From: Beijerinckiaceae bacterium
GTDB lineage: Bacteria; Pseudomonadota; Alphaproteobacteria; Rhizobiales; Beijerinckiaceae
Length of the DNA stretch: 64,000 bases
Assembly: GCA_027531565.1 (NCBI GenBank)
Contig: JAPZSB010000008.1
Location: 148,350-212,349 of the forward strand
Direction of reading: 5' to 3'
Shown here: piece by piece, positions 49,338-64,000 of the stretch
How positions within the stretch are numbered: position 1 is the stretch's first letter
Layout: each line of letters starts with the position of its first letter
Translations under genes and position numbers: made by a program
Notes under the pieces: model-generated
The model's input: only the letters and a program-made list of their open reading frames with translations
What the model was told of the DNA's origin: nothing
The model's database searches: none

Positions 49338-50825
49338 TCAAAGAGACTCCCCGGAGAGGGACTGGAAGGCGGCAAGCGCACGCTGGCGGGCATGTTCGTG
49401 CTGGACCACCGGTTTCGGATAGGTCTGTCCCAGCATGATACCCGCAGCCTGCCGGATCGGATGCGGCGCTTCCCACGGTTTGTGGATGAACTTGTCCGGA
49501 AGCCGGGCCAGTTCCGGAACGAATTTACGGACATAGACGCCGTCCGGATCGAATTTCTCCCCCTGCGTGACCGGATTGAAGATCCGGAAATACGGCGCCG
49601 CATCGGCGCCCGACCCCGCGACCCATTGCCAGCTTGCCGCATTGTTCGCCGGATCCGCATCGCACAGCGTATCCCAGAACCAGCTTTCGCCAAGCCGCCA
49701 ATCGATCATCAGGTGCTTGATCAGGAAGGATGCGACAATCATCCGCACCCGGTTATGCATGAAACCGGTCTGCCAGAGTTCGCGCATGCCGGCATCGACG
49801 ATCGGATAGCCCGTCAGGCCGCGCTGCCAGGCCGCGAGACCCGCCGGATCGTCCTGCCACGGAAAGGCATCGAATTTCGGCTGGTAGTTCGCCGTCGGCA
49901 GTGTCGGGAAATGGAACAGCAGGTGATGCGAGAATTCCCGCCAGCCCAGCTCGGAGAAGAATTTCCCGATATCCTCTTCATTGCCCGCCGCCTGCCCGGC
50001 CATCCGCGCGGCTTCGGTGGCGTGCCAGATCTGGCGGGGCGAGATCTCGCCGAAGGCCAGATGCGGCGAGAGCCGCGAGGTGGAGACAGAATCTGGCCGG
50101 TTGCGGTTCTCGCCATAATCGCGGAGCGGCCCGGACAGGAACTCCGCCAGTCTTGCCGAAGCCCCGGCCTCGCCCGGCTGCCAGCTGGCGCGGAGCCCTC
50201 CCGCCCAGTCCGGCCGGGTCGGCAGCAGCTCGAGCGCGGCCAGCGGGACGGCACCTTCCGGCATCACCGGCACGGGGGGCGGCAGCCTCTCCGGCGCGGC
50301 GACCGGCCGGGCTGGGTCCCTCAGGGCCCGGCAGGCCCGCCAGAACGGCGTGAACACCCGCATCGGGCCGCCGGCCTTCGAGCGGATCTCCATCGGCTCG
50401 TAGAGCAGGGCGCCGTTGAAGCTCTCGGCGATCACGCCATCGGCCTTGAGGGCTGCCTTGATGCCGGCATCCAGGTCCCGCTCGGGCTGGCCGTAGCGCC
50501 GGTTCCAGAACACGCGGCCCGCGCCGGCCTGTCGGGCGAGAGCCGGAATGATCTGCCGCGAATCCCCCTTGAGGATCAGCAGCGTCTGGCCCCGTTCCGC
50601 GAGGCTGCGCCCGAGGCTCGCCAGCGAATGATGCAGCCACCAGCGGCTGGCGCCGCCGCGCGGCCGAAGCCCGTCCTGCATTTCCTCGACGAAGACGAAC
50701 AGCGCTTCCCGTGCCGCGAGGGCGGCGGTGACGGCGGGGTTGTCGGTGAGGCGGAGATCGCTGCGGAACCAGACGAGGGCCCGGTCGGGCGAGGGGGCGA
50801 CAAAAGCAGAGGCGAGGCGTGTCAT
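49338..50825 (-). CDS. phrB: Deoxyribodipyrimidine photolyase (class I CPD type)
   Basis: LVWFRSDLRLTDNPA, GWREF, TGYPIVDAGMREL, HNRVRMIVASFL, DADPANNAASWQW. Start at MTRLASAF (50825); 50843 is also possible. Confidence 0.92.
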   Translation of the reverse strand: MTRLASAFVAPSPDRALVWFRSDLRLTDNPAVTAALAAREALFVFVEEMQDGLRPRGGASRWWLHHSLASLGRSLAERGQTLLILKGDSRQIIPALARQAGAGRVFWNRRYGQPERDLDAGIKAALKADGVIAESFNGALLYEPMEIRSKAGGPMRVFTPFWRACRALRDPARPVAAPERLPPPVPVMPEGAVPLAALELLPTRPDWAGGLRASWQPGEAGASARLAEFLSGPLRDYGENRNRPDSVSTSRLSPHLAFGEISPRQIWHATEAARMAGQAAGNEEDIGKFFSELGWREFSHHLLFHFPTLPTANYQPKFDAFPWQDDPAGLAAWQRGLTGYPIVDAGMRELWQTGFMHNRVRMIVASFLIKHLMIDWRLGESWFWDTLCDADPANNAASWQWVAGSGADAAPYFRIFNPVTQGEKFDPDGVYVRKFVPELARLPDKFIHKPWEAPHPIRQAAGIMLGQTYPKPVVQHEHARQRALAAFQSLSGESL

Positions 50826-50944
50826 CGCCCCGAGATATCGCATCGCGCTGCAAAGGAAAGGCCGTCGCGGCAATGTGAATCGCGCCGCCGGGCCGCCATG
50901 CTAGTCTCTGTCGCGGTGCCATGAGGCTGTTGGGAGGCTGGCCG

Positions 50945-51616
50945 ATGATCGGGACGCGGAGAGGGATGATCGCGCTTTCGGCCGGTGCCGTGTGCCTGCT
51001 GCCGCTGGCGGCCCGCGCCGGCGACCAGGCTTCCGCGCTGGCCATGATCCACGCCGCCGCGTCCGGCGATGCCGATGCGGTCGCGCGGTTCCTCGGTATC
51101 GGCGTGCCCGTGGATGTGCGCGACAGGACCGGCCGGACGGCCCTGCTGGCCGCGGTCCAGGGCAATCATGTCGAGGTGGCGCGCATCCTGATCCAGGCCG
51201 GTGCCGATGTGAATGCGAAGGATTCGATCAGCGATTCACCCTTCCTTCTTGCCGGCGCAAGGGGCCGGCTCGAGATTCTCGAGATGACGCTGGCCCATGG
51301 CGCGGACCTCGCCTCGACCAATCGCTATGGCGGCACGGCGCTGATCCCGGCCTGCCATTACGGCCATGTCGAGGTGGTTTACCGGCTGCTCAAGACCTCC
51401 ATCAATGTCAACCACGTCAACCGCCTCGGCTGGACGGCCCTGCTGGAGGCGGTCATCCTCGGCGATGGCGGTCCGGCCTATGTCGAGATTGTCGACGCCC
51501 TGCTCGAAGCCGGTGCGGATCCGCGCCTTGCCGATCGCGAGGGCGTGACGCCGCTCGACCATGCGCGGCGCCGCGGCTTCCGGCTGATCGCCGCGCTCAT
51601 CGAGAAGAAGGTCTGA
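50945..51616 (+). CDS. Secreted ankyrin-repeat protein
   Basis: Signal-like N-terminus MIGTRRGMIALSAGAVCLLPLAARA. About five ANK repeats (GRTALLAAVQGNHVEVARILIQAGADVN etc.). GGGAGG Shine-Dalgarno 7 nt upstream of 50945. Confidence 0.8.
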   Translation: MIGTRRGMIALSAGAVCLLPLAARAGDQASALAMIHAAASGDADAVARFLGIGVPVDVRDRTGRTALLAAVQGNHVEVARILIQAGADVNAKDSISDSPFLLAGARGRLEILEMTLAHGADLASTNRYGGTALIPACHYGHVEVVYRLLKTSINVNHVNRLGWTALLEAVILGDGGPAYVEIVDALLEAGADPRLADREGVTPLDHARRRGFRLIAALIEKKV

Positions 51617-51652: not shown

Positions 51653-52681
51653 TCAAGGGTCCAGATGGACGGGCAGGCCGGTCCGGCCTGTTTCCAGCAG
51701 GGCATCGATCACCCGGTGGACATGCAGCACCTCCCGGCCGGGAATGCGCGGCGGCCGCTTCCCGCGCAGCGATGCGGCGAAATCGGCGATCACGCCCCGG
51801 TGGTAATCATGCGGGAAGGCCATCGGATCCGCGCCTGTTCCGCCGGGGGAAGCGTCCGGACGGACGGTTTCATGCCCGCCATCATGGGTATGGATATCGA
51901 GCGAGGAGCCGGCGAGGATCGCCGTCCCGTGCCGGCAGATCAGCTCGATCCGCTCCGGAAACCCGGGAAAACAGGCGGTGGTCGCATCCAGCGTTCCCAC
52001 CGCTCCGGAGGCGAAGCGCAGGCTGGCCGTCACAAGGTCTTCGGTTTCCATCCGGTGGACGGGGCTGGTCAGCGCATCGCCGCAGACCCGGCTCACCGGC
52101 CCGGCCAGGCTGATCATCAGGTCCAGCGTATGGATCCCCTGCGTCAGCAGCACACCGCCGCCGTCCCGCGCCCGCGTGCCCCGGCCGGGCTCGTCGTAAT
52201 AGGCTTGCGGCCGCCAGAGCGGGATGGCCGCGCTGCACCGGATCACCGGCCCGAGGCGACCCTCCCGGAGGCGGGCCGCAAGGCGTTCCGCCGCCGGCTT
52301 GAACCGGTGCTGGAGCATGATCGCCAGCGTCACGCCGGCCCGCTCGCACGCCGTGACCAGCCTCTCCGCCCGGGCTGTCGAGATGTCGAGCGGCTTTTCC
52401 AGCAGGATGGCCTTGCCCGTGGCGGCGATGCGCTCGACCAGTTCGAGATGGGTGTTCGGCGGGGTCAGCACCATCACGGCGTCGAGACCCGGGTCCTCGA
52501 TGATGTCCTCGATCCGCCCGCAGGTGGGAAAGCCGAACGCCTGCGAGAAACCGGCCCGCCGCGTCTCGCTGGGGCTGAAGGCATGCACGAGCTCGATCTC
52601 GTCGGCGAGATCCTGCAGGCTCCGGGCATGCGGTGCCACCGCCATGCCGAGGCCGATCATTCCGAAGCGCAGGCGTGTCAT
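51653..52681 (-). CDS. Gfo/Idh/MocA family oxidoreductase
   Basis: LRFGMIGLGMAVAPH Rossmann start and the EKPL motif (AILLEKPLD). Confidence 0.85.
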   Translation of the reverse strand: MTRLRFGMIGLGMAVAPHARSLQDLADEIELVHAFSPSETRRAGFSQAFGFPTCGRIEDIIEDPGLDAVMVLTPPNTHLELVERIAATGKAILLEKPLDISTARAERLVTACERAGVTLAIMLQHRFKPAAERLAARLREGRLGPVIRCSAAIPLWRPQAYYDEPGRGTRARDGGGVLLTQGIHTLDLMISLAGPVSRVCGDALTSPVHRMETEDLVTASLRFASGAVGTLDATTACFPGFPERIELICRHGTAILAGSSLDIHTHDGGHETVRPDASPGGTGADPMAFPHDYHRGVIADFAASLRGKRPPRIPGREVLHVHRVIDALLETGRTGLPVHLDP

Positions 52682-52917: not shown

Positions 52918-54183
52918 ATGCGCAAGACTTTGCTCGGAGCCGTTGCGATCACCGCCCTCATGCTGCCCGGCGCAGCCATGGCGCAGGGCGGCACCATCAA
53001 GATCGGCATTCTCGTCGCGCTTGAAGGCGCGTTCGCGACCGGGGGCCAGGATGGCGTCCGCAACGTCGAACTCGCCCTCAAGCAGATCAACAACACCATT
53101 GCCGGCAAGAAGGTGGAGACGGTCGTCGCGCCGACCGACACCAAGCCGGACACCACCATCCGCATGGCGCGCAAGCTGATCGAACAGGACAAGGTCGACA
53201 TCATCATCGGCCCGCTTTCCGGCTCGGAAGGCATCGCGATGCGCGATTTCGCCAAGACCATTCCCAACAACGTGGTGATCAACGGGATTTCCGGTGCGCT
53301 GGAGACCACCTGGGTCGATCCCGCACCGAATTTCTACCGGTTCAATCTCGATGGCGCCCAATGGGGCTACGGCCTTGGCTCCTATGCGGTCAAGACCAAG
53401 GGCTTCAAGCGGATCGCCACCATCGCCGCGGATTACTCGTTCGGCTACACGAACTTCATGGGCTTCGCGGTCGATTACTGCAAGGCGGGCGGTGATATAG
53501 TCCAGCGCTTCTGGCAGCCGCTCGGCCAGTCCGATTTCGGCGGCATCATCGCCCAGCTGCCGGAAAACGTGGATGCGATCTATCTCGGCCTCGGCGGCAC
53601 CGACGCGATCAACTTCCTCAACCAGTATCAGCAGGCCGGCGAGAAGACCCGCCTGATCGGCGGCACCATCCTCGCCGACCAGACCGTGCTGACGGCCCGT
53701 GGCAAGGCCAAGGACGCGCTCAAGGGCACGCCGGTTTCCGGCCCCTTCGCGGCCGACAACAAGGATCCGGCCTGGACCTCCTACGTGAAGCTCTACCAGG
53801 ACTCGTTCCCGGCCAACCAGCGCCTGCCGTCGCCGTCGCTCTTCGGCCTGGGCTACTACACGGCCACGCTCGCGGCCATCAAGGGGCTGGAAGCAGCCGG
53901 CGGTGACCTGTCGAATGGCCAGGCCAAGTTCAAGGAAGCCCTCAACAAGCTCCAGCTGGACAGCCCGGTCGGCAAGATCACGCTCAACGAGAACCGCCAG
54001 GCGACCGGCACGGTGTTCATCAACGAGGTGGTTGACGGGCCGGATGGCAACATGACCACCAAGATGGTGGCGAAGTCCGACAACGTCACCCAGACCCTGG
54101 GCATGACGGCGGAACAGTTCCGCGCCCTCGGCCTGCCGTCACGCAACGTGGTGGATTGCGCCAAGCTGCGCTCGGGCGGCTGA
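52918..54183 (+). CDS. ABC transporter substrate-binding protein (LivJ/Peripla_BP_6-like)
   Basis: Signal peptide MRKTLLGAVAITALMLPGAAMAQ, then IKIGILVALEGAFATGGQDG. GGGAGG Shine-Dalgarno upstream. Confidence 0.85.
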   Translation: MRKTLLGAVAITALMLPGAAMAQGGTIKIGILVALEGAFATGGQDGVRNVELALKQINNTIAGKKVETVVAPTDTKPDTTIRMARKLIEQDKVDIIIGPLSGSEGIAMRDFAKTIPNNVVINGISGALETTWVDPAPNFYRFNLDGAQWGYGLGSYAVKTKGFKRIATIAADYSFGYTNFMGFAVDYCKAGGDIVQRFWQPLGQSDFGGIIAQLPENVDAIYLGLGGTDAINFLNQYQQAGEKTRLIGGTILADQTVLTARGKAKDALKGTPVSGPFAADNKDPAWTSYVKLYQDSFPANQRLPSPSLFGLGYYTATLAAIKGLEAAGGDLSNGQAKFKEALNKLQLDSPVGKITLNENRQATGTVFINEVVDGPDGNMTTKMVAKSDNVTQTLGMTAEQFRALGLPSRNVVDCAKLRSGG

Positions 54184-54299
54184 ACCGCCTCCCTCATCGA
54201 CACGCTGACATGCGGCTGGCCCTCCCGGGCCAGCCGTTCTCTCCTTCGCGAAGACCAGAAACGGGCGGCATCAGATCGCCCTCGCCGGGAGTGTTGCCG

Positions 54300-55355
54300 A
54301 TGACCCTGATAGGCTATCTGACCCGGACCCATTTTGCCGAGGCGGCCATCGAGGATGCGCTGCCCGAGGAAGCCGGCGCGCTCTCGGAAGCCCTGGTGCT
54401 GGCCGACGACGAGCCCGGCGCCGGCGCTGCGCTCGAGCGGGTCCGCGAGGCGCTCGACCGGATCCCGCTGACGGTCCATGTCCTTCCGCCCGGCGCACCG
54501 TCGCGCGGGGAGACCCGCGCCCTCATCGCCCGCCTGCGGCAGGTCGGCACCTCGACCTTGCTCGCTGTCGGCGGGGCCCAGGCGGTCGGTCAGGCCCGGC
54601 TGGTGGCCGCCGAGGCGTCCCGGCAGGGCGATCGGCTGACCGTCATCGCCGTGCCGGTCGGGCTGTTCGATCTCGGCCTCGGCCGCCATGTCCGGCCCCG
54701 CGATGGCCGTCCGGCGCCGTGTCCGCGCCCTGACCGGGTGATCGTCGATCCGACCGTGCTGGAACAGGTGCCGATCCGCCGGATCGCCGCTTCGGCCATG
54801 GAGATCATGGTCCATGCGATCGAGGCCTATGCGAGCCCGAGCTACAACCCGCCGGCCGATGGCCTCGCCCTCGAGGCGGTGCGCCGCATGACGCATTGGC
54901 TGCCGGTTGTTCTGGACGTGCCCGGCCATCGCGAGGCGCGGCGCGAGATCATGGCGGCGGCGATGACGGCTGGGCTCGCGCTCGAAAAGGCCGTGGGCGG
55001 CGTCGATGCGCTGGCCTTTCCCATCGAACCGGAGCTGCAATCCGGCTTCCTGCCGGGGGATCTTCACGCCCCGCTTCTCGCGGCCATGGCCGATTTCAAT
55101 GCGCAGGCGGTCGGGGAGCGCTATGCCGCCCTCGCCGTGACGCTGGCCCGGCGCGACGGGCAGGTCTCGCTCAGCACGGAGATCGGGGCTTTCGCGCGCG
55201 GCCTCGGCCTGCCGACGAGCCTGCGCGAGATTGGCATCGACCGCCGCCGCTTCGACCGTTTTGCCGAGATGGCGGCAAATGATCCCGCCGCTCTGGCCAA
55301 CCCGCGCCGCCTCACCCCGGGCGACTGCCGATTGATCCTCGAGGCCGCATGGTGA
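54300..55355 (+). CDS. Iron-containing alcohol dehydrogenase family protein (divergent)
   Basis: Fe-ADH-like blocks (LLAVGGAQAVG, VIVDPTVL, MEIMVHAIEAY), but several canonical motif positions look substituted. Confidence 0.65.
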   Translation: MTLIGYLTRTHFAEAAIEDALPEEAGALSEALVLADDEPGAGAALERVREALDRIPLTVHVLPPGAPSRGETRALIARLRQVGTSTLLAVGGAQAVGQARLVAAEASRQGDRLTVIAVPVGLFDLGLGRHVRPRDGRPAPCPRPDRVIVDPTVLEQVPIRRIAASAMEIMVHAIEAYASPSYNPPADGLALEAVRRMTHWLPVVLDVPGHREARREIMAAAMTAGLALEKAVGGVDALAFPIEPELQSGFLPGDLHAPLLAAMADFNAQAVGERYAALAVTLARRDGQVSLSTEIGAFARGLGLPTSLREIGIDRRRFDRFAEMAANDPAALANPRRLTPGDCRLILEAAW

Positions 55356-55452
55356 GCCGGCTGCCGCATCCGCCCCAATCACCGGTTGCCAGTTCTCCGG
55401 GGGCCTATACATTCGTCGTAATCCGCGAAGAAAAACAAGCGGGAGGAAACCG

Positions 55453-56289
55453 ATGAGCATCGCTCACGCTGTCGCACATGGTGCGTTCGGGCGGGCTTGC
55501 CTCTACGAGCTGGACCGGCCGATGGTGCCGCATGCCCATCGGGAAGGGCATCTGATCTTCCATGTCCGCGGGCCGGCGGCCAAGGTGGTCATCGATGGCC
55601 GGGCCTACCCGCTCAATCCGTTCGAGGCGACCGCCATCAGCCCGTGGCAGCCGCATTATTTCATGCCGGTGGACCGCCGCGTCCCGACCCTGACGCTGGT
55701 GCTCTATATCCGCCCCGGCTGGTTCGTCGAGGCCAGCGGGCAGGCCTCGGAAATCCTGCGTTTCGGCCGTCCCGTCGTCAGCATGGATGACCATATCGCC
55801 CGCCTTGCCGCCGAAACGGCGCGGCAGCTTGCTGCCTATTCCGAGGGCGACGGCAATTTCGAGGACCGGCTCAGCGCCCTGACACAGGCCGCCTTCGACC
55901 AGACCTGGCAATGGCAGGCGGGCGGGCAGGCCGGTGACCGGATGCGCTTCGGCTTCCGCGATTTCCGCATCCGGCGGGCGATCAGCCTGATGGGCGAAAC
56001 CCTCGGCGAGCCGATCGACCTGAGCGTCGTCTCGCGCGCGGCCGGCCTGTCGCGGCCGCATTTCTTCAAGCTGTTCCGGGAACAGGTGGGCCTGCCGCCG
56101 ACGCTCTATCTCAACGCGCTCCGCATGGAACGCGCGATCGAACGGCTGGCGCGCGGGGAGGAGACGGTTTCGGAAATCGGCCTCGATCTCGGCTTCGCGA
56201 CACCGGCCAGCTTCTCGCGGTTCTTCATCGCCAACGGCGTCGTGCCCCCCAGTGCCTACCGGCGCAGCGTGCTCGGGGCCGTCCATTGA
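55453..56289 (+). CDS. AraC family transcriptional regulator
   Basis: C-terminal double HTH (LSVVSRAAGLSRPHFFKLFREQVGLPPTLYLNALRMERA...GFATPASFSRFF) and an N-terminal cupin-like sensor. Confidence 0.88.
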   Translation: MSIAHAVAHGAFGRACLYELDRPMVPHAHREGHLIFHVRGPAAKVVIDGRAYPLNPFEATAISPWQPHYFMPVDRRVPTLTLVLYIRPGWFVEASGQASEILRFGRPVVSMDDHIARLAAETARQLAAYSEGDGNFEDRLSALTQAAFDQTWQWQAGGQAGDRMRFGFRDFRIRRAISLMGETLGEPIDLSVVSRAAGLSRPHFFKLFREQVGLPPTLYLNALRMERAIERLARGEETVSEIGLDLGFATPASFSRFFIANGVVPPSAYRRSVLGAVH

Positions 56290-56301
56290 GCGAGGCCCCG
56301 C

Positions 56302-56331
56302 CTTTCCCGAAAGAAAAGACGTTCGGGAAAG
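56302..56331 (+). terminator. Perfect hairpin after the AraC gene
   Basis: ctttcccgaa (56302-56311) pairs with ttcgggaaag (56322-56331), 10-nt loop. No T-tract, so function is uncertain. Confidence 0.4.
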
Positions 56332-56457
56332 CGTGCCGCGGGGCGCTCATTCTAGTCTTGGCCGAGAGGGATGGCGAAAGGGCGCCATCCGGGCCCGGCA
56401 AATCCCTGCGAAGACAGGATGCCGGCCCGAGGACAGGGTCTTCCGAGACACGCCGCG

Positions 56458-57474
56458 ATGGATGACATCATCAAGCGCAATCCGCTCCGGAGCCTGATCA
56501 TCGCGATCCTCATCGCGGTCTTCCTCTGGCTTGTCTTCGCGCCCTGGCCGCCGGAACTGGTGGCGAAATGGGGCCGGAAGCAGATCTTCCTCAACGCGCT
56601 GCTTGGCGGCATCACCCTCGGCGCGCTGTATTTCCTCGTCGCCGCCGGCTTCACGCTGATCTTCGGCCTGATGCGGGTGGTCAACCTCGCCCATGGCTCG
56701 CTCTTCCTGCTTGGCGGCTATCTCGGCTACGAGATTTCCAGCCTCACCGGGTCCTGGTTCATCGCCTTTCCGGTCGTATTCCTCGTCGTCGGCCTGCTCG
56801 GCCTCCTCATGCAGCGCTTCATCTTCTCGAAGATGGAGGGCGAGGAACTGCGGCAGACGCTGGTCAGCATCGGCATTTCCATCGTTCTCGCCGATCTCAT
56901 GCTCTGGCTCTGGGGCGGCCAGTCCTACTCGATCCTCGCGCCCGGCTTCCTGACCGGGCCGATGGAACTGCCGATCATCAACTCGATCAATGCCAGCACG
57001 GGCGCCACCAACTGGCTGCGCTACCCGGCCGTGCGGGTCTGGATCCTGATCGCCGCAATCGTGATCGGCGTGGCGATGTGGCTCGTCCTGAACCGGACCG
57101 CCCTGGGCATGCTGATCCGCGCCGGCGTCGATGACCGCGAGATGCTTGCCGCTTCCGGCGTCCGCATCCAGCTGGTCTTCCTCGCCGTGTTCGGCTTCGG
57201 CGCCGGCCTCGCCGGCATGGCCGGCATCATCGGCGGTACGTTCCAGTCGCTCTCGCCGGGCGAGGATACCCGCTTCCTGCTGGCCAGCCTCGTGGTCGTC
57301 ATCGTCGGCGGCATGGGCTCGATTGTCGGCGCGGCCATCGGCTCGCTCATCATCGGCGTCACCGAGCAGATGGGCTTCGTCTACGCGCCCACCTATTCGG
57401 TGGTCTTCACCTTCCTGATCATGGCGGCGGTGCTGGCCTTCCGGCCGCAGGGCCTGCTCGGGGCGAGGCGCTAG
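56458..57474 (+). CDS. Branched-chain amino acid type ABC permease (LivH-like)
   Basis: LNALLGGITLGALYFLVAAGFTLIFGLMRVVNLAHGS is a canonical LivH N-terminal block. Confidence 0.9.
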   Translation: MDDIIKRNPLRSLIIAILIAVFLWLVFAPWPPELVAKWGRKQIFLNALLGGITLGALYFLVAAGFTLIFGLMRVVNLAHGSLFLLGGYLGYEISSLTGSWFIAFPVVFLVVGLLGLLMQRFIFSKMEGEELRQTLVSIGISIVLADLMLWLWGGQSYSILAPGFLTGPMELPIINSINASTGATNWLRYPAVRVWILIAAIVIGVAMWLVLNRTALGMLIRAGVDDREMLAASGVRIQLVFLAVFGFGAGLAGMAGIIGGTFQSLSPGEDTRFLLASLVVVIVGGMGSIVGAAIGSLIIGVTEQMGFVYAPTYSVVFTFLIMAAVLAFRPQGLLGARR

Positions 57475-57477
57475 ACC

Positions 57478-58539
57478 ATGGCGATGACCGATCAGGCCCC
57501 CCGCTTCGTCAACCGCGCCGACCAGAAACTCTGGTTCGAGCGCATTCCCGCGCCCTGGTGGGCACTGGCGGTGGTGCTCGTCTTCCTGCCGGTCGTGGCG
57601 AACAGTTTCTGGCTGTTCCAGGTCATGGGCTGGACCTTCATCCTCGGCATGATCGGCCTCAGCCTGATGTTCCTCGCCGGCTATGGCGGCATGGTCAGCC
57701 TGCTGCAGATGACGGTGGCCGGCGTGGCGGGTTACATGGTCGCCATTCTCGGCACGTCCGGCACGGTCACGGTCAGTCTCGGCCTCGTCTGGTGGATCGT
57801 GATCCCCGCCGCCTTCCTGATCGCCGCGCTTTTCGCGACAATATCCGGCGCCCTCGCGGTCAGGACCGAGGGCATCTACACGATCATGATCACGCTCGCC
57901 ATCGCGGCGGCGTTCTTCTACTTCACGCGGCAGAACTACACGATCTTCAACGGCTATTCCGGCTTCAACCTCGTCCTGCCGCCGCAGCTTTTCGGGGTGA
58001 ACTGGCGCGAGCCGGTGCCCTTCTACTATCTCAGCCTCGTGCTGGCGGCCCTGTCCTACGGCGCGGTGGTCTATGTCTCGCGCTCGCCCTTCGGCCTTGC
58101 GCTGCAGGGCGTGCGCGACAATCCGCGCCGCATGGCGGCGCTCGGCTTCAACGTCACGGCGCATCGCGTCGCGGCCTATGCCCTGGCCAGCGTCTTCGCC
58201 TCGGCCGGCGGCATCCTGCTGGTCTGGCAGAATGCGCAGATCGCGCCGGGCACCATCGGCATGTCCGCCGCGATCGACGTGCTCGTCGTGGCCGTTGTCG
58301 GTGGCATGCGCCGGCCGCTCGGGCCTTTCATCGGCGCCTTCATCTACGTGCTCCTGCAGGTCTTCTCGCCGGATATCCTCGGCTTCTTCGGCTTCTCGGC
58401 AGAGCGCTTCAAGCTGATCATCGGCCTCGGCTTCCTCGCGGTCGTGCTGTTCTCGCCCGATGGCGTACTCGGCCTCTGGGACCGCTGGCGCGCGCGCCGC
58501 CGCCAGCAGGGCGGGCAGGCGGGGGGAGGGGTCGCATGA
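57478..58539 (+). CDS. Branched-chain amino acid type ABC permease (LivM-like)
   Basis: 353-aa polytopic protein. LSLMFLAGYGGMVSLLQ and VRDNPRRMAALGFN are LivM blocks. Confidence 0.9.
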   Translation: MAMTDQAPRFVNRADQKLWFERIPAPWWALAVVLVFLPVVANSFWLFQVMGWTFILGMIGLSLMFLAGYGGMVSLLQMTVAGVAGYMVAILGTSGTVTVSLGLVWWIVIPAAFLIAALFATISGALAVRTEGIYTIMITLAIAAAFFYFTRQNYTIFNGYSGFNLVLPPQLFGVNWREPVPFYYLSLVLAALSYGAVVYVSRSPFGLALQGVRDNPRRMAALGFNVTAHRVAAYALASVFASAGGILLVWQNAQIAPGTIGMSAAIDVLVVAVVGGMRRPLGPFIGAFIYVLLQVFSPDILGFFGFSAERFKLIIGLGFLAVVLFSPDGVLGLWDRWRARRRQQGGQAGGGVA

Positions 58540-59339
58540 ACGCCCCGGTCACCCCGCCGCGTCCGGTTGCCCTCGGGCAGAGCCATGTCAGCGCCGGCAA
58601 CGCGCTGGAACTGCGCGGCATCACCAAGATGTTCGGCGCGCTCGCCGCCATTTCCGATGTCACCCTGTCCGTCCGCCCGGGCGAGCGCCGCGCCGTACTG
58701 GGCTCCAATGGCGCCGGCAAGACGACGTTGTTCAACTGCATTACCGGCGATTTCCTGCCCACAACCGGGCTGATCCGCTTCTTCGGCGAGGATGTCACCA
58801 CCTTTCCGCCGCATGAGCGGATCCGCCGGGGCCTGCGCCGCACCTACCAGATCTCCTCGCTTTTCGCCGGCCTCTCGGTGATCGACAATGTCTATCTCGC
58901 CTGCCGGGGCGTTTCACGGAACCGCTTCTCGCTGATCCGGCCCCGACGCGACGATGCCCTCGTCCATGCGGCGGAAACGCTTGTCGAGGCCGTGCACCTC
59001 ACGGCGGAGAAGGACCGTCTCGTCGGCGAACTCGCCTATGGCCAGCAGCGCCAGCTCGAAATCGCGCTCGCCCTGTCGGGCGCGCCGCGCTTCATCCTGT
59101 TCGACGAGCCCGCGGCGGGCCTCTCGCCCACCGAGCGACGCGACCTTGTCTCGATCCTGACCACGCTGCCGACCCATATCGGCTACATCATCATCGAGCA
59201 CGACATGGATGTGGCGCTGCGCGTCGTCGAGAGCGTGACGATGATGCATAACGGCCGCATCTTCAAGGAAGGCCGCCCGGAGGAGATCGAGGACGATCCC
59301 GAGGTGCAGGAACTCTATCTCGGAGGCGGCCATGAGTGA
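58536..59339 (+). CDS. Branched-chain amino acid type ABC ATP-binding protein (LivG-like)
   Basis: [37 protein letters not shown] overlap with the LivM-like gene. Confidence 0.9.
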
Positions 59340-61557
59340 GCGCCTCCCGCGCGGTGCCAGCGCGCCGATCCTGCAACTCCAGGGCGTCAACGTCTTTTAT
59401 GGCCGCTCGCATGCCGTGCAGGGCGTCGATCTTTCCCTCCATTCCGGCGTGCTTTCGGTGGTCGGGCGGAACGGCATGGGCAAGACCACCATGTGCAAGG
59501 CCATCATGGGCCTTGTGCCGGTCTCGTCCGGCTCGATCCGTTTCATGGGCGAGGAACTGGTCGGCCGCACCTCGGCCGAGATCGCCCGGATGGGGATCGG
59601 CTATGTGCCGCAGGGGCGTCGCCTCTGGCGCTCGCTGACGGTGGACGAGCATCTCCGCCTGATGTCGCGCGGGAAGGGCGCCTGGACGCCGGAGCGGATC
59701 TACGAGGTCTTCCCGCGCCTGGCCGAGCGGCGCCGCAATGGCGGCGGCCAGCTCTCGGGCGGCGAGCAGCAGATGCTGGCGATCAGCCGTGCCCTGCTGA
59801 TGAACCCGCGCCTGCTCATCATGGACGAGCCGACCGAGGGCCTTGCCCCGGTCATCGTCGCCCATGTCGAGGAAACCCTCGTCCGCCTCGCTGCGGAGGG
59901 CGATGTCTCGATCCTCGTGATCGAGCAGAATATCGGCGTCGCGACGCAGATGTCGGACACGATCGCCATCATGGTCAACGGCCGGATCCACCGGGTCATC
60001 GCCTCGTCCGTGCTTGCCGCGGACCGTGATCTCCAGCAGCGCCTGCTCGGCGTCGGCCGCCACAGCCACGAGGAGGCTGAACCCGGCGCCGGCGCGGCAC
60101 CGTCCGGTGAGCCGCGCCCGGCCGCCCCCGCGCCGCAGGGCCCGATCCGGGTCTACAATGCCAACCCGGTCCTGCCGACGCGCTGGTCGCAGGATGTGCC
60201 GGCGGCCCGCATCGAGGCGCAGGCCCGCACCATCTCCCGGCCGACGCTGGCCACGATCGACGGCCGCCGCGTCGGCGATGTCTCGCCGCTCGCCGCCCGC
60301 GCGCCGCAGGAGCCGCATGTCATCATCGCCGGCACGCTCGACACCAAGGGCGAGGAACTGCGCTTCCTGCGGGACCTTATCAAGGCCGCCGGCCTGCGCA
60401 CCCGCCTCGTCGATCTCTCGACCAATGGCCGCAACCAGGGCGCGGATGTCTCGGCGCAGGAAGTGGCTCTGGCCCTGCCGACCGGTTCCGCCGGCATCGC
60501 CTCGGGGGATCGTGGCAAGGCGGTGGCCGCGATGACCGAGGCCTTCCGCGCCTGGATGGCGCGACAGCAGGGCGTGATCGGCATCCTCTCGGCCGGTGGT
60601 TCGGGCGGCACGGCCATTGCCACCGCCGGCATGCAGGCCCTGCCGGTCGGCGTGCCGAAGCTGATGGTTTCGACCATGGCCTCGGGCAATGTCGCGGCCT
60701 ATGTCGGCGCGACCGACATCACCATGATGCATTCCGTGACCGATGTTCAGGGGCTGAACCGCGTCTCCCGCACGGTGCTCGGCAATGCCGCGCAGGCCAT
60801 GGCGGCCATGGCGCGGAGCTTCCACGAGCAGCAGCACGGGCCGGCAACGCGCCGCGCCGAACCGGAGAAACCGCTGGTCGGGCTGACCATGTTCGGCGTC
60901 ACGACGCCCTGCGTGCAGCAGGTGGCGCGGCTGATCGAGCGCGAATGGGAGCCGCTGGTCTTCCACGCCACCGGCACCGGCGGCCGCTCGATGGAAAAGC
61001 TGATCGATTCCGGCCTCGTGCCCGGCGTGATCGACGTCTCGACCACCGAGATCTGCGACATGATGATGGGCGGCATCCTGCCCGCTACCGAAGATCGCTT
61101 CGGCTCGGTGATCCGCACGAAGATCCCGTATGTCGGATCTGTCGGCGCGCTCGACATGGTCAATTTCGCCGCGCCCGACACCGTGCCGGCGCAATATCGC
61201 CACCGGCTCTTCTATCCGCATAACCCGCAGATCACGCTGATGCGGACGACGGCCGAGGAAAACGCCCGCATGGGCCGCTGGATCGGCGAACGCCTCAACC
61301 TCATGGAGGGGCCGGTACGCTTCCTCCTGCCGGAAGGGGGCGTCTCGGCGCTGGATGCGCCTGGCCAGCCCTTCTGGGATCCCGCCGCCGATGCCGCCCT
61401 GTTCGACTCCCTGGCCTCGACGGTCCGCGTCACCGCGACAAGGCAGCTCATCCGGCTGCCCCATCACATCAACGACCCCGCCTTCGCGGCGGCGCTCGTG
61501 CAGCATTTCCGTGCGCTGCATCAGGGCCGCTTCCGGGGCGCTACCGGCAGGACCTGA
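59332..61557 (+). CDS. Fusion protein: LivF-like ABC ATPase + Pro/Ala-rich linker + Tm-1-like UPF0261 ATP-binding domain
   Basis: Single 741-aa frame. N-terminal [34 protein letters not shown]-terminal [40 protein letters not shown]. Confidence 0.85.
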
Positions 61558-61560
61558 GAC

Positions 61561-62415
61561 ATGCCCCGCTTCGCCCGCTCCGAGTTGCTGGACCGCTACC
61601 GCGCGATGATCGCGCGGGGGGAGCCGATTGTCGGCGGCGGTGCCGGCACCGGGCTCTCCGCGAAATGCGAGGAAGCCGGCGGCATCGACCTGATCGTCAT
61701 CTACAATTCCGGCCGGTTCCGCATGGCCGGGCGCGGCTCGCTTTCCGGCCTGATGCCCTATGGCGATGCCAATGCCATCGTCATGGACATGGCCAGCGAG
61801 GTGCTGCCGGTTGTCAAGAAAACCCCGGTCATTGCCGGGGTCTGTGGCACCGACCCGTTCCGTTCGATGGATGTCTTCCTCGATGATGTCGCGCGGATCG
61901 GCTTTTCCGGCGTGCAGAATTTCCCGACCGTCGGGCTGATCGACGGCGTCTTCCGGCAGAATCTCGAGGAAACCGGCATGGGCTTCGGCCTTGAGGTCGA
62001 GATGATCCGCCTCGCCCGGCAGAAGGGCCTGCTGACGACGCCTTATGTGTTCTCCGAGGCCGATGCCGCGGCCATGGCCGGGGCGGGGGCGGATATCATC
62101 GTCTGCCATCTCGGGCTGACGACCGGTGGCTCGATCGGCGCGGAAACCGCGCTCAAGCTGAAGGATTGCCCGGTCATCGTCGATGCCTGGGCGGCAGCGG
62201 CTCTCGCCGTCAAGCCGGACGCGATCATCCTCGTCCATGGCGGCCCGGTGGCCGAGCCGCCGGATGCCGATTTCATCATGAAGAACACCCGCCATTGCCA
62301 CGGCTTCTATGGCGCCTCCTCGATGGAGCGCCTGCCGGTGGAAGTGGCGATCCGCGAACAGACCAGGGCTTTCAAGACAATCAGCCGCACGGGCGGCGCG
62401 CCGGGTCCGGCGTGA
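61561..62415 (+). CDS. Phosphoenolpyruvate hydrolase-like TIM-barrel protein (Tm-1 C-terminal-half homologue)
   Basis: [74 protein letters not shown]. Starts 3 nt after the fusion gene. Confidence 0.85.
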
Positions 62416-62444: not shown

Positions 62445-64000
62445 ATGACGGGGCAACTGATCGGAACCCTCATTCTCTGGCTCATCGTGGCGGTGATCGT
62501 CATTGCGATCATCGTCTACCTGGTGAACTGGCTCTATCGCCGCTCGTCGAAGGAGGTGTCCTTCGTGCGCACCGGCCTGTTCGGCGAAAAGGTGGTGATC
62601 AATGGCGGCGCCTTCGTGCTGCCGATCATCCATGATGTCACGCCGGTGAACATGAATGTCCTGCGTTTGGCCGTCACGCGAGCCAACCAGGATGCGCTGA
62701 TCACGCGGGACCGGATGCGCGTCGATATCGATGCCGAATTCTATGTCCGCGTCCGCCCGGACCGGCCCTCGGTCTCGATCGCCGCGGCCACGCTTGGCCG
62801 GCGGACCCTGCAGCCTGATCAGCTCAATGCCCTGCTCTCCGGCAAGTTCATCTCGGCCCTGCGCTCGGTCGCCTCGGAAATGTCGATGGAGGAGATGCAC
62901 GAGCAGCGCGGGCTCTATGTCCAGCGCGTTCGCGATGCCGCCGTCGACATGATGGAGCAGAACGGCCTCGTGCTTGAATCGGTGGCGATCACCGATCTCG
63001 ACCAGACCGACCTGCAGTATTTCAACCCGTCCAACCGGTTCGACGCCGAAGGTCTGACGCGGATCATCGAGGAGATCGAGGAGAAGCGGAAGCTCCGCAA
63101 CGATATCGAACAGGATTCGATGATCCGCATCCGCACCCGCAATCTCGAGGCGGAACGGCAGGCGCTGGATATCGAGCGCGAGAGCGAGACCGCCCGGCTG
63201 GAGCAGCAACGCGAAATCGAGATCCGCCGGGCGATGCAGCGGGCCGAGGTGGCCCGCGAGCGCGCGGCCCGGGATACCGAGGCCGAACAGGCCCAGATCC
63301 TCTCCCGCGAGGAGATCGAGAAGGCGAAGATCGCCAATGAGCGCGCGATCAGCGAGGCGCGGATCTCGTCGGACCGTGAGGTCCGCCAGCGCGAGATCGA
63401 GCGCACCAAGGCCGTGGAATCGGCCGAGATCCTCGCCCGCGAGGAGATCGAGAAGGCCCGGATCTTCAACGACAAGACGATCCAGGCCGCGCGAATCGCC
63501 TCGGAACTGGAGACACGCCAGAAGGAGATCGAACGGACCCGGTTGCTCGAGGCGGCGGAAATCGCCGCCCGGGAGGCCACCGAGAAGGCCCGCATCGCGC
63601 AGGAAGCGCTCGTCAGTGCCGAGCGGATCGGCCGCGAGCAGGAGATCCGCAATCTCGAGATCGCCCGCAACCGGGCGCTGGACGAGGCCGAGATTGCCGC
63701 CCGCGAGGCGGTGGAGAAGGCCCGGATCGCGCAGGAAAATGCGGTGACGGCCGAGCGGATCAGCTTCGAGGAAGGCCGCCGCAAGCTGGAAATCGAGCGC
63801 AACAAGGCGGTCGAGACCGCCGAGATCACCGCCCGCGAAGCCACGGAAGCGGCCCGGATCGCGCAGGAAAAGGCCATCGCCGCCGAGCGGATCGCCTCGG
63901 AACTCGAAACGCGCCGGCTGGAAATCCGCCGGACGGAGGAACTGGAAGCCGCCGAGATCCAGCGCCGCGACGCGGTCGAGCGGCAGCGCATCGCCGCCGA
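62445..64000 (+). CDS. Flotillin/SPFH (band 7) family protein, 3' end outside window
   Basis: Not in the ORF track because there is no stop in the window. My translation from ATG 62445 (GGAGGA Shine-Dalgarno) gives an N-terminal TM helix, an SPFH core (VRTGLFGEKVVINGGAFVLPIIH...) and a long Glu/Ala/Arg-rich coiled coil. Confidence 0.85.
   Translation, partial: MTGQLIGTLILWLIVAVIVIAIIVYLVNWLYRRSSKEVSFVRTGLFGEKVVINGGAFVLPIIHDVTPVNMNVLRLAVTRANQDALITRDRMRVDIDAEFYVRVRPDRPSVSIAAATLGRRTLQPDQLNALLSGKFISALRSVASEMSMEEMHEQRGLYVQRVRDAAVDMMEQNGLVLESVAITDLDQTDLQYFNPSNRFDAEGLTRIIEEIEEKRKLRNDIEQDSMIRIRTRNLEAERQALDIERESETARLEQQREIEIRRAMQRAEVARERAARDTEAEQAQILSREEIEKAKIANERAISEARISSDREVRQREIERTKAVESAEILAREEIEKARIFNDKTIQAARIASELETRQKEIERTRLLEAAEIAAREATEKARIAQEALVSAERIGREQEIRNLEIARNRALDEAEIAAREAVEKARIAQENAVTAERISFEEGRRKLEIERNKAVETAEITAREATEAARIAQEKAIAAERIASELETRRLEIRRTEELEAAEIQRRDAVERQRIAA
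63291..64000 (+). repeat. In-frame 132-bp (44-aa) tandem repeats within the flotillin gene
   Basis: Units start at 63291, 63423, 63555, 63687, 63819 and 63951, each beginning A(E/Q)I..RE..E.A.I... DNA blocks such as gcccggatcgcgcaggaaa recur. Confidence 0.8.

Follow-up and report, generated by a model that had tools for sequence, protein, structure and literature searches.

The gene cluster and its fusion protein

Our study concerns a gene in which the ATPase of an ATP-binding cassette (ABC) importer is fused to a domain of the UPF0261 family, together with the gene cluster that surrounds it. The gene lies in a stretch of 64,000 nucleotides from Beijerinckiaceae bacterium (assembly GCA_027531565.1, contig JAPZSB010000008.1, positions 148,350 to 212,349), here called the window, whose first nucleotide is position 1 of all coordinates given below. 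The list of open reading frames (ORFs) shows 59332..61557 on the + strand as one open frame of 741 amino acids with no interruption, and the G+C content at third codon positions is 0.80-0.96 over the entire frame and runs continuously through the linker and the junction. Its ATG lies inside the end of the LivG gene, a few nucleotides downstream of a GGAGG; its stop codon ends at 61557, and the gene of a TIM-barrel protein starts at 61561 after a gap of 3 nucleotides. The parts of the fusion and its partner gene are the following.

59332..60048, + strand: fusion residues 1-239, LivF/UrtE-type nucleotide-binding domain (Pfam ABC_tran, sequence motifs, AlphaFold2 fold)
60049..60306, + strand: fusion residues 240-325, disordered tether (predicted local distance difference test score, pLDDT, 24-32)
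60139..60240, + strand: conserved tether motif, residues 270-303 (alignment of 33 fused proteins)
60307..61557, + strand: fusion residues 326-741 and stop codon, UPF0261 (Tm-1/MarK-type) ATP-binding kinase-like module (Pfam, NF002673)
61561..62415, + strand: phosphoenolpyruvate (PEP)-hydrolase-like TIM barrel, partner of UPF0261 (PF09370, 427 bits; PDB 2P10, 396 bits)

Pfam searches of the 741-residue product place ABC_tran at residues 30-168 (E 2.8e-26), the UPF0261 N-domain PF06792 at residues 328-497 (E 1.7e-60, 204 bits against a cut-off of 27) and UPF0261_C, PF23189, at residues 513-729 (E 1.1e-87, 293 bits, cut-off 27). The NCBIfam model NF002673 scores 606 bits over residues 328-731 (cut-off 520), which assigns the C-terminal module to the UPF0261/Tm-1-like family. 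The motifs of both domains are complete: Walker A is found at position 45, the signature LSGGEQQ at 141, Walker B (IMDEPTEG) at 163 and IEQN at 197, and the UPF0261 motifs DTKG, GGSGGT, STMASG and FHATG follow at 337, 422, 447 and 544. In an AlphaFold2 model the ATPase domain (10-239) and the UPF0261 module (326-732) fold separately and show no fixed packing against each other (predicted template modelling score, pTM, 0.43). The nearest NCBIfam models for the ATPase part are UrtE and LivF, and both stay under their cut-offs (TIGR03410, the UrtE equivalog, 222 bits against 286; NF008626, the LivF equivalog, 149 against 441), so that the N-terminus of the fusion is assigned to neither group of orthologues. 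Judged by these profiles, the ATPase domain is LivF-like in type only and implies no substrate.

The initial annotation of the locus had read this gene as a single 741-residue frame with a LivF-type ATPase carrying Walker A, signature and Walker B motifs at its N-terminus and with UPF0261 over its last 400 or so residues, followed after 3 nucleotides by a TIM barrel. All of this is borne out: the frame by the ORF and the continuous codon-position G+C, the two domains by their motifs and by the Pfam and NCBIfam profiles, and the partner by its coordinates and by PF09370, which the product of the ORF at 61561 matches at full length (profile positions 2-267 of 267). The linker was estimated correctly at about 85 residues, but it is not simply Pro/Ala-rich as had been described, since an invariant PTRW lies within it.

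The fusion is genuine and widespread

We searched a collection of 5.8 billion proteins for homologues and took the 120 best matches. Every one of them has the same three Pfam domains in 693-758 residues, at 77-100% identity; they are spread over many independent contigs and complete genomes, and their sources include Beijerinckiaceae, Rhabdaerophilum, Bosea, Pseudolabrys, Bradyrhizobium, Prosthecomicrobium and Phreatobacter. Scanning genomes with each species represented once, we confirmed at least 587 stretches, and 80 loci were kept (L001-L080), among them Bradyrhizobium japonicum, Rhodobacterales, Hoeflea, Roseomonas and a Burkholderiales genome. All 80 match both modules, at 63-96% identity; 74 hold the whole fusion and the remaining loci are cut by a contig end. 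Full-length fused proteins were recovered down to 40% identity in a search of 1.84 billion cluster representatives, the eight more distant fused representatives that were looked up each lie on a separate contig of their own, and a plasmid collection adds fused loci from Shinella, Yoonia and the betaproteobacterium Variovorax paradoxus.

These data leave practically no chance that two separate genes were merged in this contig by a frameshift in sequencing or assembly or by a lost stop codon. Long open frames are frequent in the window owing to its high G+C content, and we found nothing else that speaks for such an error. Against it stand the three-domain protein in 120 of the 120 best homologues, on independent contigs and complete genomes, the fusion in all 80 kept loci, the conservation of the linker at the protein level, and a codon-position G+C pattern that runs on through the junction; the artefact was ruled out on these grounds. 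On the sequence record the fusion is genuine, old and widespread, within an ABC importer of the binding-protein-dependent LIV/HAAT type. The initial annotation had allowed that the fused architecture might already be functionally characterised; the literature that we searched holds no paper describing an ABC ATPase-UPF0261 fusion, and only the MarK paper and a paper on the origin of plant Tm-1, both taken up below, were found.

A variant of the architecture is seen in one metagenome representative of 718 residues (P0138), in which an intact UPF0261 module stands behind a LivG-like ABC domain with a degenerate-looking Walker A region.

An invariant motif in a disordered tether

To analyse the segment that joins the two domains, we aligned 33 fused proteins of 48-96% identity. 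Its part from residue 246 to 269 varies, with a mean column identity of 0.39, and residues 270-303 reach a mean column identity of 0.83, equal to that of the folded domains. P282, T283, R284 and W285 are invariant in 33 of the 33 proteins. AlphaFold2, run with the same alignment, predicts residues 240-325 to be disordered apart from a short helix at 291-300, and in the model of the whole fusion the tether motif contacts neither domain. No segment like the tether exists in unfused UPF0261 or LivF proteins, and PTRW is not present in unfused homologues; among the fused proteins (P)TRW is missing only in one clade (P0143/P0159) and is kept in lineages that have no TIM-barrel gene. An invariant motif within a disordered segment resembles a docking site for another protein, and we would place the PTRW motif in this class.

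The UPF0261 module and its TIM-barrel partner

A reaction has been described for one protein of the UPF0261 family. MarK of Novosphingobium aromaticivorans (Saro_1862, PDB 9MPY) forms a homodimer and is a kinase that turns ATP into ADP, phosphorylating acetovanillone and related aromatics on their phenolic hydroxyl; the ATP site is proposed to be its D14-T15-K16 region, its His219 touches the phosphorylated phenolic oxygen, and its gene sits in an acetovanillone carboxylase cluster without a TIM-barrel partner (JBC 2025; PMC12624787). Among UPF0261 proteins, MarK alone has been shown to catalyse a reaction. The view in the initial annotation that neither UPF0261 nor the TIM-barrel family has an assigned function in bacteria is thus superseded for UPF0261 (PMC12624787) and holds for the TIM barrel, for which the literature searched contains no described reaction.

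The window module matches MarK over its whole length (211 bits), and the two share the two-domain UPF0261 fold family. The ATP-site residues D14, T15 and K16 are kept (LDTKGEEL, 337-339), as are His219 (His545 in VFHATG) and His304 (in YPHNPQ); of 111 sequences compared, fused and unfused together, about 96 keep equivalents of the DTK motif and of both histidines. The ketone-binding His348 of MarK is Leu in the window module (GVSALD), as it also is in Tm-1, so that the MarK substrate pocket is not reproduced. The subfamilies differ too: MarK belongs to NF002674, whereas the window module, the Variovorax fusion and an unfused protein of NGR234 belong to NF002673, and MarK is a free-standing homodimer with no TIM partner, while the window module is fused to an ABC ATPase. 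From its sequence we take the window module to be a relative of MarK with an intact active-site framework and not a MarK orthologue. It looks catalytically competent and may act as a kinase, and since His348 is replaced by Leu its substrate probably differs from that of MarK.

The closest solved structure by sequence is that of Tm-1 of tomato (3WRY, 315 bits; the set of Tm-1 structures is PDB 3WRV-3WRY). The known role of this plant virus-resistance protein is the binding of a viral replicase and is not metabolic. Tm-1 resembles the window locus in that UPF0261 is combined with the same TIM-barrel family, and differs in the joint: in plants UPF0261 is fused to the TIM barrel (P0187; PMC5028733), and here it is fused to a transporter ATPase while the TIM barrel is separate. 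The two genes are adjacent in all loci with intact UPF0261 motifs except L096, where the TIM gene is placed about 3 kb upstream on the opposite strand. Because the genes are adjacent in the intact loci, are fused in plants, and the TIM gene is lost along with the UPF0261 motifs (see below), the genomic evidence indicates that the two proteins function together.

Next to unfused UPF0261-TIM pairs we also noted genes of 578-609 residues whose N-terminal part is 33-37% identical to the TIM barrel (L081 14644-16473; L082 8508-10337; L084 6079-7905; L085 10524-12260; L089 11575-13323). They are annotated as sigma-54-dependent regulators or as 'phosphoenolpyruvate hydrolase family protein', and the TIM-barrel fold seems to be used in them as a sensor domain. 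Since the matches are in genes of regulator size, the TIM barrel can plausibly act as a ligand sensor.

The importer genes

The remaining genes of the cluster lie on the same strand, on both sides of the fusion and its partner.

52918..54183, + strand: periplasmic substrate-binding protein of LIV/HAAT type (Peripla_BP_6; PF13458, 204 bits)
54297..55355, + strand: divergent iron alcohol dehydrogenase (Fe-ADH)-like protein, optional cluster member (PF25137 C-domain, 88 bits)
55453..56289, + strand: AraC-family regulator with a cupin-type ligand domain (HTH_18, 69 bits; AraC_binding)
56458..57474, + strand: LivH-like permease (BPD_transp_2, 103 bits)
57478..58539, + strand: LivM-like permease (BPD_transp_2, 102 bits; 3-nucleotide gap to LivH)
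58536..59339, + strand: LivG-like ATPase (ABC_tran and BCA_ABC_TP_C)
62445..64000, running off the window end, + strand: flotillin-like SPFH protein, 5' part (N-terminal helix, repeats, orthologue in L049)

Two permeases, two ATPases and a binding protein in one co-directional set with overlapping genes identify a LIV/HAAT importer (TC 3.A.1.4 type). From LivH through to the TIM barrel, neighbouring genes either overlap or are separated by 3 nucleotides; the LivG start overlaps the LivM stop, and the LivG stop overlaps the fusion start. The longest ORF for LivH begins at 56371, and Met 56458 is its likely start, with homologue matches beginning about 90 nucleotides inside the ORF. No terminator-like site was found on the + strand in the gaps from LivH to the flotillin-like gene, although promoter and terminator scans tell little in DNA of such high G+C content. 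In all sufficiently long loci the order is constant: binding protein, Fe-ADH-like gene where it occurs, AraC, LivH, LivM, LivG, fusion, TIM barrel. The binding protein is encoded by the leftmost gene of every complete cluster, and the AraC gene is kept between binding protein and permeases in the alphaproteobacterial loci. Pfam and this conserved order agree with the initial annotation, which described an importer of the LIV type together with a dedicated binding protein and an AraC regulator.

Other parts of that annotation fared less well. The Gfo/Idh/MocA oxidoreductase gene (51653..52681) had been counted as part of the unit and has been ruled out as a member, since only the closest relative, L049, has it; the genes upstream of the binding protein are not conserved. 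The Fe-ADH-like gene is present by Pfam as had been said, but its membership of the cluster is optional and confined to some lineages: it is found in loci of the window's type and in L090, L092 and L101, and is missing in the Bosea loci and most Bradyrhizobium loci. Nor is the unit self-contained within 52918-62415, as it continues with the flotillin-like gene at 62445 and off the window.

The Fe-ADH-like protein has a nucleotide-binding N-domain that scores 26.8 bits, under the cut-off of 31.3. Aligned with PDB 8ZRL, it shows a metal-ligand Asp changed to Glu in AMEIMVHAIEAY and a His changed to Asp in GGVDALAF, and it may not be a normal iron alcohol dehydrogenase. The binding protein is about 48% identical to those of the Thermomicrobium roseum and Variovorax clusters; its nearest solved structures are weakly matching binding proteins of the LIV family, at 129 bits or less, and an attempt to read its ligand from these PDB matches was dropped, their ligands not having been confirmed by a search with the PDB codes.

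The similarity of the cluster to its relatives is uneven along its length. In loci of the Bosea and B. japonicum types the binding protein, AraC regulator and permeases are 36-66% identical to those of the window, LivG 80-91% and the fusion 63-79%, and L042-L048 show the reverse pattern, with 89-90% for the binding protein and 68-69% for the fusion. Because the left and right blocks differ in this way between clades, the pattern suggests that a left cassette (binding protein to LivM) has been exchanged relative to the right one (LivG onward), with a breakpoint near the LivM/LivG border. Two further genes to the left are unrelated to the fusion: 49338-50873 on the - strand, whose translation resembles a DNA photolyase, and 50921-51616 on the + strand, presumably an ankyrin-repeat protein with a signal peptide, likewise read by eye from the translation.

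The flotillin-like gene and genes beyond the window

The ATG of the flotillin-like gene at 62445 follows a GGAGG and stands 29 nucleotides after the TIM barrel. The window holds the first 518 residues of the protein, with a hydrophobic, membrane-anchor-like N-terminal helix and a repeat region rich in Glu, Ala and Arg, in which 132-nucleotide (44-residue) tandem repeats occupy 63290-63894; the ORF 62915..63991 on the - strand is an antisense shadow of this gene. The full-length orthologue in L049 scores 59 bits on Band_7 and 117 bits on Flot; on the FloT equivalog, whose cut-off is 700, it reaches only 25 bits. The flotillin-like proteins of relatives are 515-1142 residues long and differ in length mainly in the repeat region, and those met when the flanking ORFs were clustered have about 870-1140 residues with Band_7 and Flot domains; no solved-structure relatives of the protein were found by sequence.

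In loci with enough flanking sequence, the flotillin-like gene after the TIM barrel is followed on the same strand by one or two SRPBCC genes (Polyketide_cyc2) and often by an enzyme of the xanthine dehydrogenase (XDH) family, which lies beyond the window end (L049 16494-22362; L090 14948-21966; L088 18774-25963). This enzyme consists of FAD, 2Fe-2S and molybdopterin subunits, the last of them divided between two ORFs, one with the hammerhead domain and MoCoBD_1 (and a Pro/Ala-rich tail in L021) and the other with MoCoBD_2; the halves score best on xanthine dehydrogenase (PucD) and 4-hydroxybenzoyl-CoA reductase models. Further along come the genes of a MoxR/CoxD-like AAA ATPase and a VWA_CoxE protein. 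The NCBIfam model nearest to the AAA ATPase is named MadB, on which the literature search returned only unrelated papers; no paper on an association of flotillin with SRPBCC proteins was found either.

Co-occurrence across lineages

The comparison of lineages gives three rules. The TIM gene accompanies UPF0261 modules whose motifs are intact, flotillin accompanies the fused state, and the SRPBCC genes accompany the tether motif, the last of these rules resting on a single loss event.

The fused loci with intact motifs P0121, P0122, P0123, Variovorax and Yoonia all keep the TIM barrel, the flotillin-like gene and two SRPBCC genes. Those of P0121, P0122, P0123 and Variovorax are without the XDH-family enzyme, and the P0122 and P0123 loci consist only of importer, TIM barrel, flotillin and two SRPBCC genes, a set that looks like the minimal unit. 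At least seven separate clusters at 50% identity (P0124, P0126, P0130, P0131, P0142, P0143, P0159; loci L090-L094 and L100-L102) have lost DTK, GGSGG and the histidine of FH. Genomic context was looked up for five of them (P0124, P0130, P0142, P0143, P0159), and all five are without the TIM gene and keep importer and flotillin. In these degenerate lineages the ATPase domain is 64-74% identical to that of the window and 60-81% between lineages, and the UPF0261 part, still full length, is 20-47% identical to the window and 16-42% between lineages. The P0143/P0159 clade is the only one without SRPBCC genes and likewise the only one without (P)TRW.

Wherever the flank of a fused locus is long enough, the next gene after the TIM barrel or after the fusion encodes the flotillin-like protein, both in Alpha- and in Betaproteobacteria, many of them from soil and water. 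This gene is present in none of the seven unfused UPF0261-TIM loci compared (T. roseum, NGR234, MAFF303099, and plasmids of Azospirillum, Bosea, Rhizobium and Qingshengfaniella); P0137 and P0144, which are the unfused UPF0261 representatives nearest to the window, lie on contigs too short for this comparison. In four of the seven unfused loci an SRPBCC or cupin gene comes right after the TIM barrel.

Unfused relatives and known systems

A close counterpart without the fusion is found in another phylum. Thermomicrobium roseum (NC_011961) has LivH, LivM, binding protein, LivG, LivF, UPF0261 and TIM barrel as separate genes, with the order LivG-LivF-UPF0261-TIM in common with the window, a binding protein 48% and a TIM barrel 66% identical to those of the window. 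It differs in that LivF (244 residues) and UPF0261 (412 residues) are separate proteins with neither tether nor PTRW, that flotillin and SRPBCC genes are absent, and that its UPF0261 scores best on NF002674. Because LivF and UPF0261 are adjacent and unfused there, we propose that the fusion arose from neighbouring genes.

In rhizobia, UPF0261-TIM pairs stand beside CUT1 sugar importers, on pNGR234a, at the pMLa locus that encodes Mll9387 (PDB 2P10), and on plasmids of Qingshengfaniella and Bosea. The Qingshengfaniella pair comes straight after the gene of a sugar importer's UgpC-type ATPase, and in NGR234 a short PEP-hydrolase gene on the reverse strand is all that lies between the UgpC-type ATPase gene and the pair. 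These pairs resemble the window in subfamily (NF002673; 666 bits for NGR234), in the TIM barrel (66-74% identical) and in an SRPBCC gene that is often next to them. They differ in being unfused, in the UgpC-type importer, in having no flotillin, and in the cupin, Gfo/Idh/MocA and TIM-domain regulator genes nearby. That the transporter ATPase is functionally linked to the UPF0261/TIM pair, as suggested when the locus was first annotated, is backed by the unfused order in T. roseum and by the pairs that follow UgpC-type ATPase genes. The pair accompanies two unrelated importer families, and this distribution fits an enzyme that acts on imported molecules. Kinases are common in uptake operons.

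An additional C-terminal module on an importer ATPase has precedents, since C-terminal regulatory domains are well established in MalK, MetN, ModC and OpuA. Their modules are small ligand-binding domains placed directly under the ATPase dimer, through which cytoplasmic substrate inhibits transport. The likeness to these four proteins ends with the position of the module: here the appendage is a 400-residue domain of enzyme type on a long disordered tether, and only one of the two ATPase subunits carries it. With UPF0261 behind an 85-residue tether and no fixed packing on the ATPase in the model, the fusion is not a member of the MalK/MetN type. If the kinase acts on the cargo, uptake and phosphorylation would be physically coupled, a concept shared with the sugar phosphotransferase system; the two are not homologous, ATP and not PEP would be used, and transport and phosphorylation would be carried out by separate domains of the ABC system.

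A model for the tethered kinase

We favour, tentatively and at somewhat less than even probability, a reading in which the tether keeps a kinase/TIM-barrel pair at the importer, and the pair acts on the incoming substrate, probably an aromatic or hydrophobic compound, within an assembly organised by flotillin. The fusion with its domains and intact motifs, the disordered tether with its motif, the gene order and the co-occurrence patterns are seen in the sequences; kinase activity, the imported molecule as substrate of the kinase, the association of the importer with flotillin and SRPBCC proteins, and the kind of substrate are what we infer. The binding protein and LivH/LivM would import an organic compound, probably aromatic, heteroaromatic or otherwise hydrophobic; the tethered UPF0261 module and the TIM-barrel protein would use ATP to phosphorylate or otherwise activate it at the exit of the transporter; the flotillin-like protein would organise the membrane assembly that holds the whole machine; and SRPBCC ligand carriers, perhaps docked on PTRW, would pass the compound to downstream enzymes, in the window's lineage a molybdenum enzyme of the XDH family. 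A stricter version, in which all this forms one membrane-bound machine, with a flotillin oligomer fencing or caging the cytoplasmic face of the importer so that the hydrophobic cargo is phosphorylated or activated and handed over to SRPBCC proteins at PTRW with no free diffusion, strikes us as distinctly unlikely.

The nature of the substrate is suggested by several lines of evidence. LIV-type binding proteins of the related R. palustris mostly take aromatic acids, fatty acids and dicarboxylates and not branched-chain amino acids (PMC3223731). Enzymes encoded nearby include the XDH-family hydroxylase in the window's lineage and most Alphaproteobacteria, two Amidohydro_1 proteins, an FAH-family protein, an alpha/beta hydrolase and a VOC protein in Variovorax, and a cyclase, FAH and VOC proteins and a PPDK-type dikinase pair in T. 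roseum. Taken with the phenolic substrates of MarK, these ligands and neighbours lead us to expect that the substrate is probably aromatic or N-heteroaromatic, and rather hydrophobic.

Several observations count against this model. MarK, from which kinase activity is extrapolated, belongs to another subfamily than the window module, works without a TIM partner and has a ketone-binding His348 where the window module has Leu. UPF0261-TIM pairs also stand beside importers of the sugar type, so that the family does not imply an aromatic substrate. The AlphaFold2 model, computed for a single chain, predicts no docking of the motif and none between the two domains. Finally, importer and flotillin survive in the degenerate lineages, most of which also retain the SRPBCC and XDH genes, so that the chemistry of UPF0261 and TIM barrel is dispensable for the rest of the system; that they also retain a full-length, fast-evolving UPF0261 domain hints that its physical presence counts at least as much as catalysis. 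Since this chemistry was lost while transporter and flotillin persist, catalysis is not the sole reason for the domain.

The module could instead be a regulatory appendage, in which UPF0261 responds to ATP or to a pathway metabolite, the TIM barrel serving as its ligand sensor, and switches LivG/LivF while the cargo passes unchanged. C-terminal regulatory domains of importer ATPases are a familiar device, the TIM family recurs as the N-terminal domain of regulators beside unfused pairs (L081, L082, L084, L085, L089), and Tm-1 is known as an ATP-binding protein with no catalysis described. Known regulatory domains, however, directly follow the ATPase and dimerise beneath it, whereas the window module hangs on 85 disordered residues and on one of the two ATPase subunits only; the catalytic residues of MarK are strictly kept in the main clade, and lineages that have lost motifs and TIM barrel keep a transporter that looks functional. 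We regard regulation as unlikely for these reasons. A mainly structural role, in which the domain and its PTRW tether organise the flotillin/SRPBCC assembly, perhaps clustering transporters by dimerisation as the homodimeric MarK (PMC12624787) would allow, and TIM-barrel catalysis is optional, is favoured by the same degenerate lineages that trouble the kinase model: full-length UPF0261 persists in at least seven clusters without motifs, all five of those looked up being TIM-less as well, and (P)TRW is kept in the TIM-less lineages and absent only where SRPBCC genes are absent too, in the P0143/P0159 clade. Of all the partners, flotillin alone accompanies every fused locus and is missing from each of the seven unfused ones. 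The persistence of degenerate domains and the universal link to flotillin keep this explanation alive. We nevertheless consider it improbable, as the identity between degenerate UPF0261 domains (16-42%, against 60-81% for the ATPase) is more like relaxed selection, the catalytic residues are clearly constrained in the window's own clade, and the correlation of motif and SRPBCC genes represents a single evolutionary event.

There is, lastly, the possibility that related neighbouring genes were fused for equal expression only and that tethering has no mechanistic effect. The T. roseum arrangement shows that the genes can work as separate proteins, and a long and disordered tether would be compatible with this, but a fusion of convenience sits poorly with its retention across Alpha- and Betaproteobacteria and down to 40% identity, with an invariant tether motif that unfused proteins lack, and with the perfect correlation between the fused state and a downstream flotillin gene; we think mere co-expression very unlikely.

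UPF0261 and its TIM-barrel partner extend from bacteria to plants, with a known reaction for one UPF0261 member and none for the TIM barrel. The fusion ties the pair to a specific transporter, and the ligand of that transporter is a direct lead to the pair's substrate. The architecture is already visible in databases, but an enzyme-type domain on the disordered tether of an importer ATPase is, as far as our searches show, an undescribed and new kind of appendage, unusual in its enzyme type, its tether motif and its constant partner genes. The strict pairing with flotillin offers a genetically tractable bacterial flotillin with a defined client machine, and the cluster occurs in cultivable, genetically accessible bacteria (Bradyrhizobium, Bosea, Variovorax). 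Were the caged version of the model correct, it would provide an ABC-based counterpart of group translocation and a new role for a bacterial flotillin.

The names under which these proteins are deposited differ between databases. The JGI name is 'UPF0261 family / ABC-type branched-chain amino acid transport ATPase', and the NCBI name for the fusions (records P0002-P0120), 'ABC transporter permease', is wrong and misleading, as the proteins have no permease domain.

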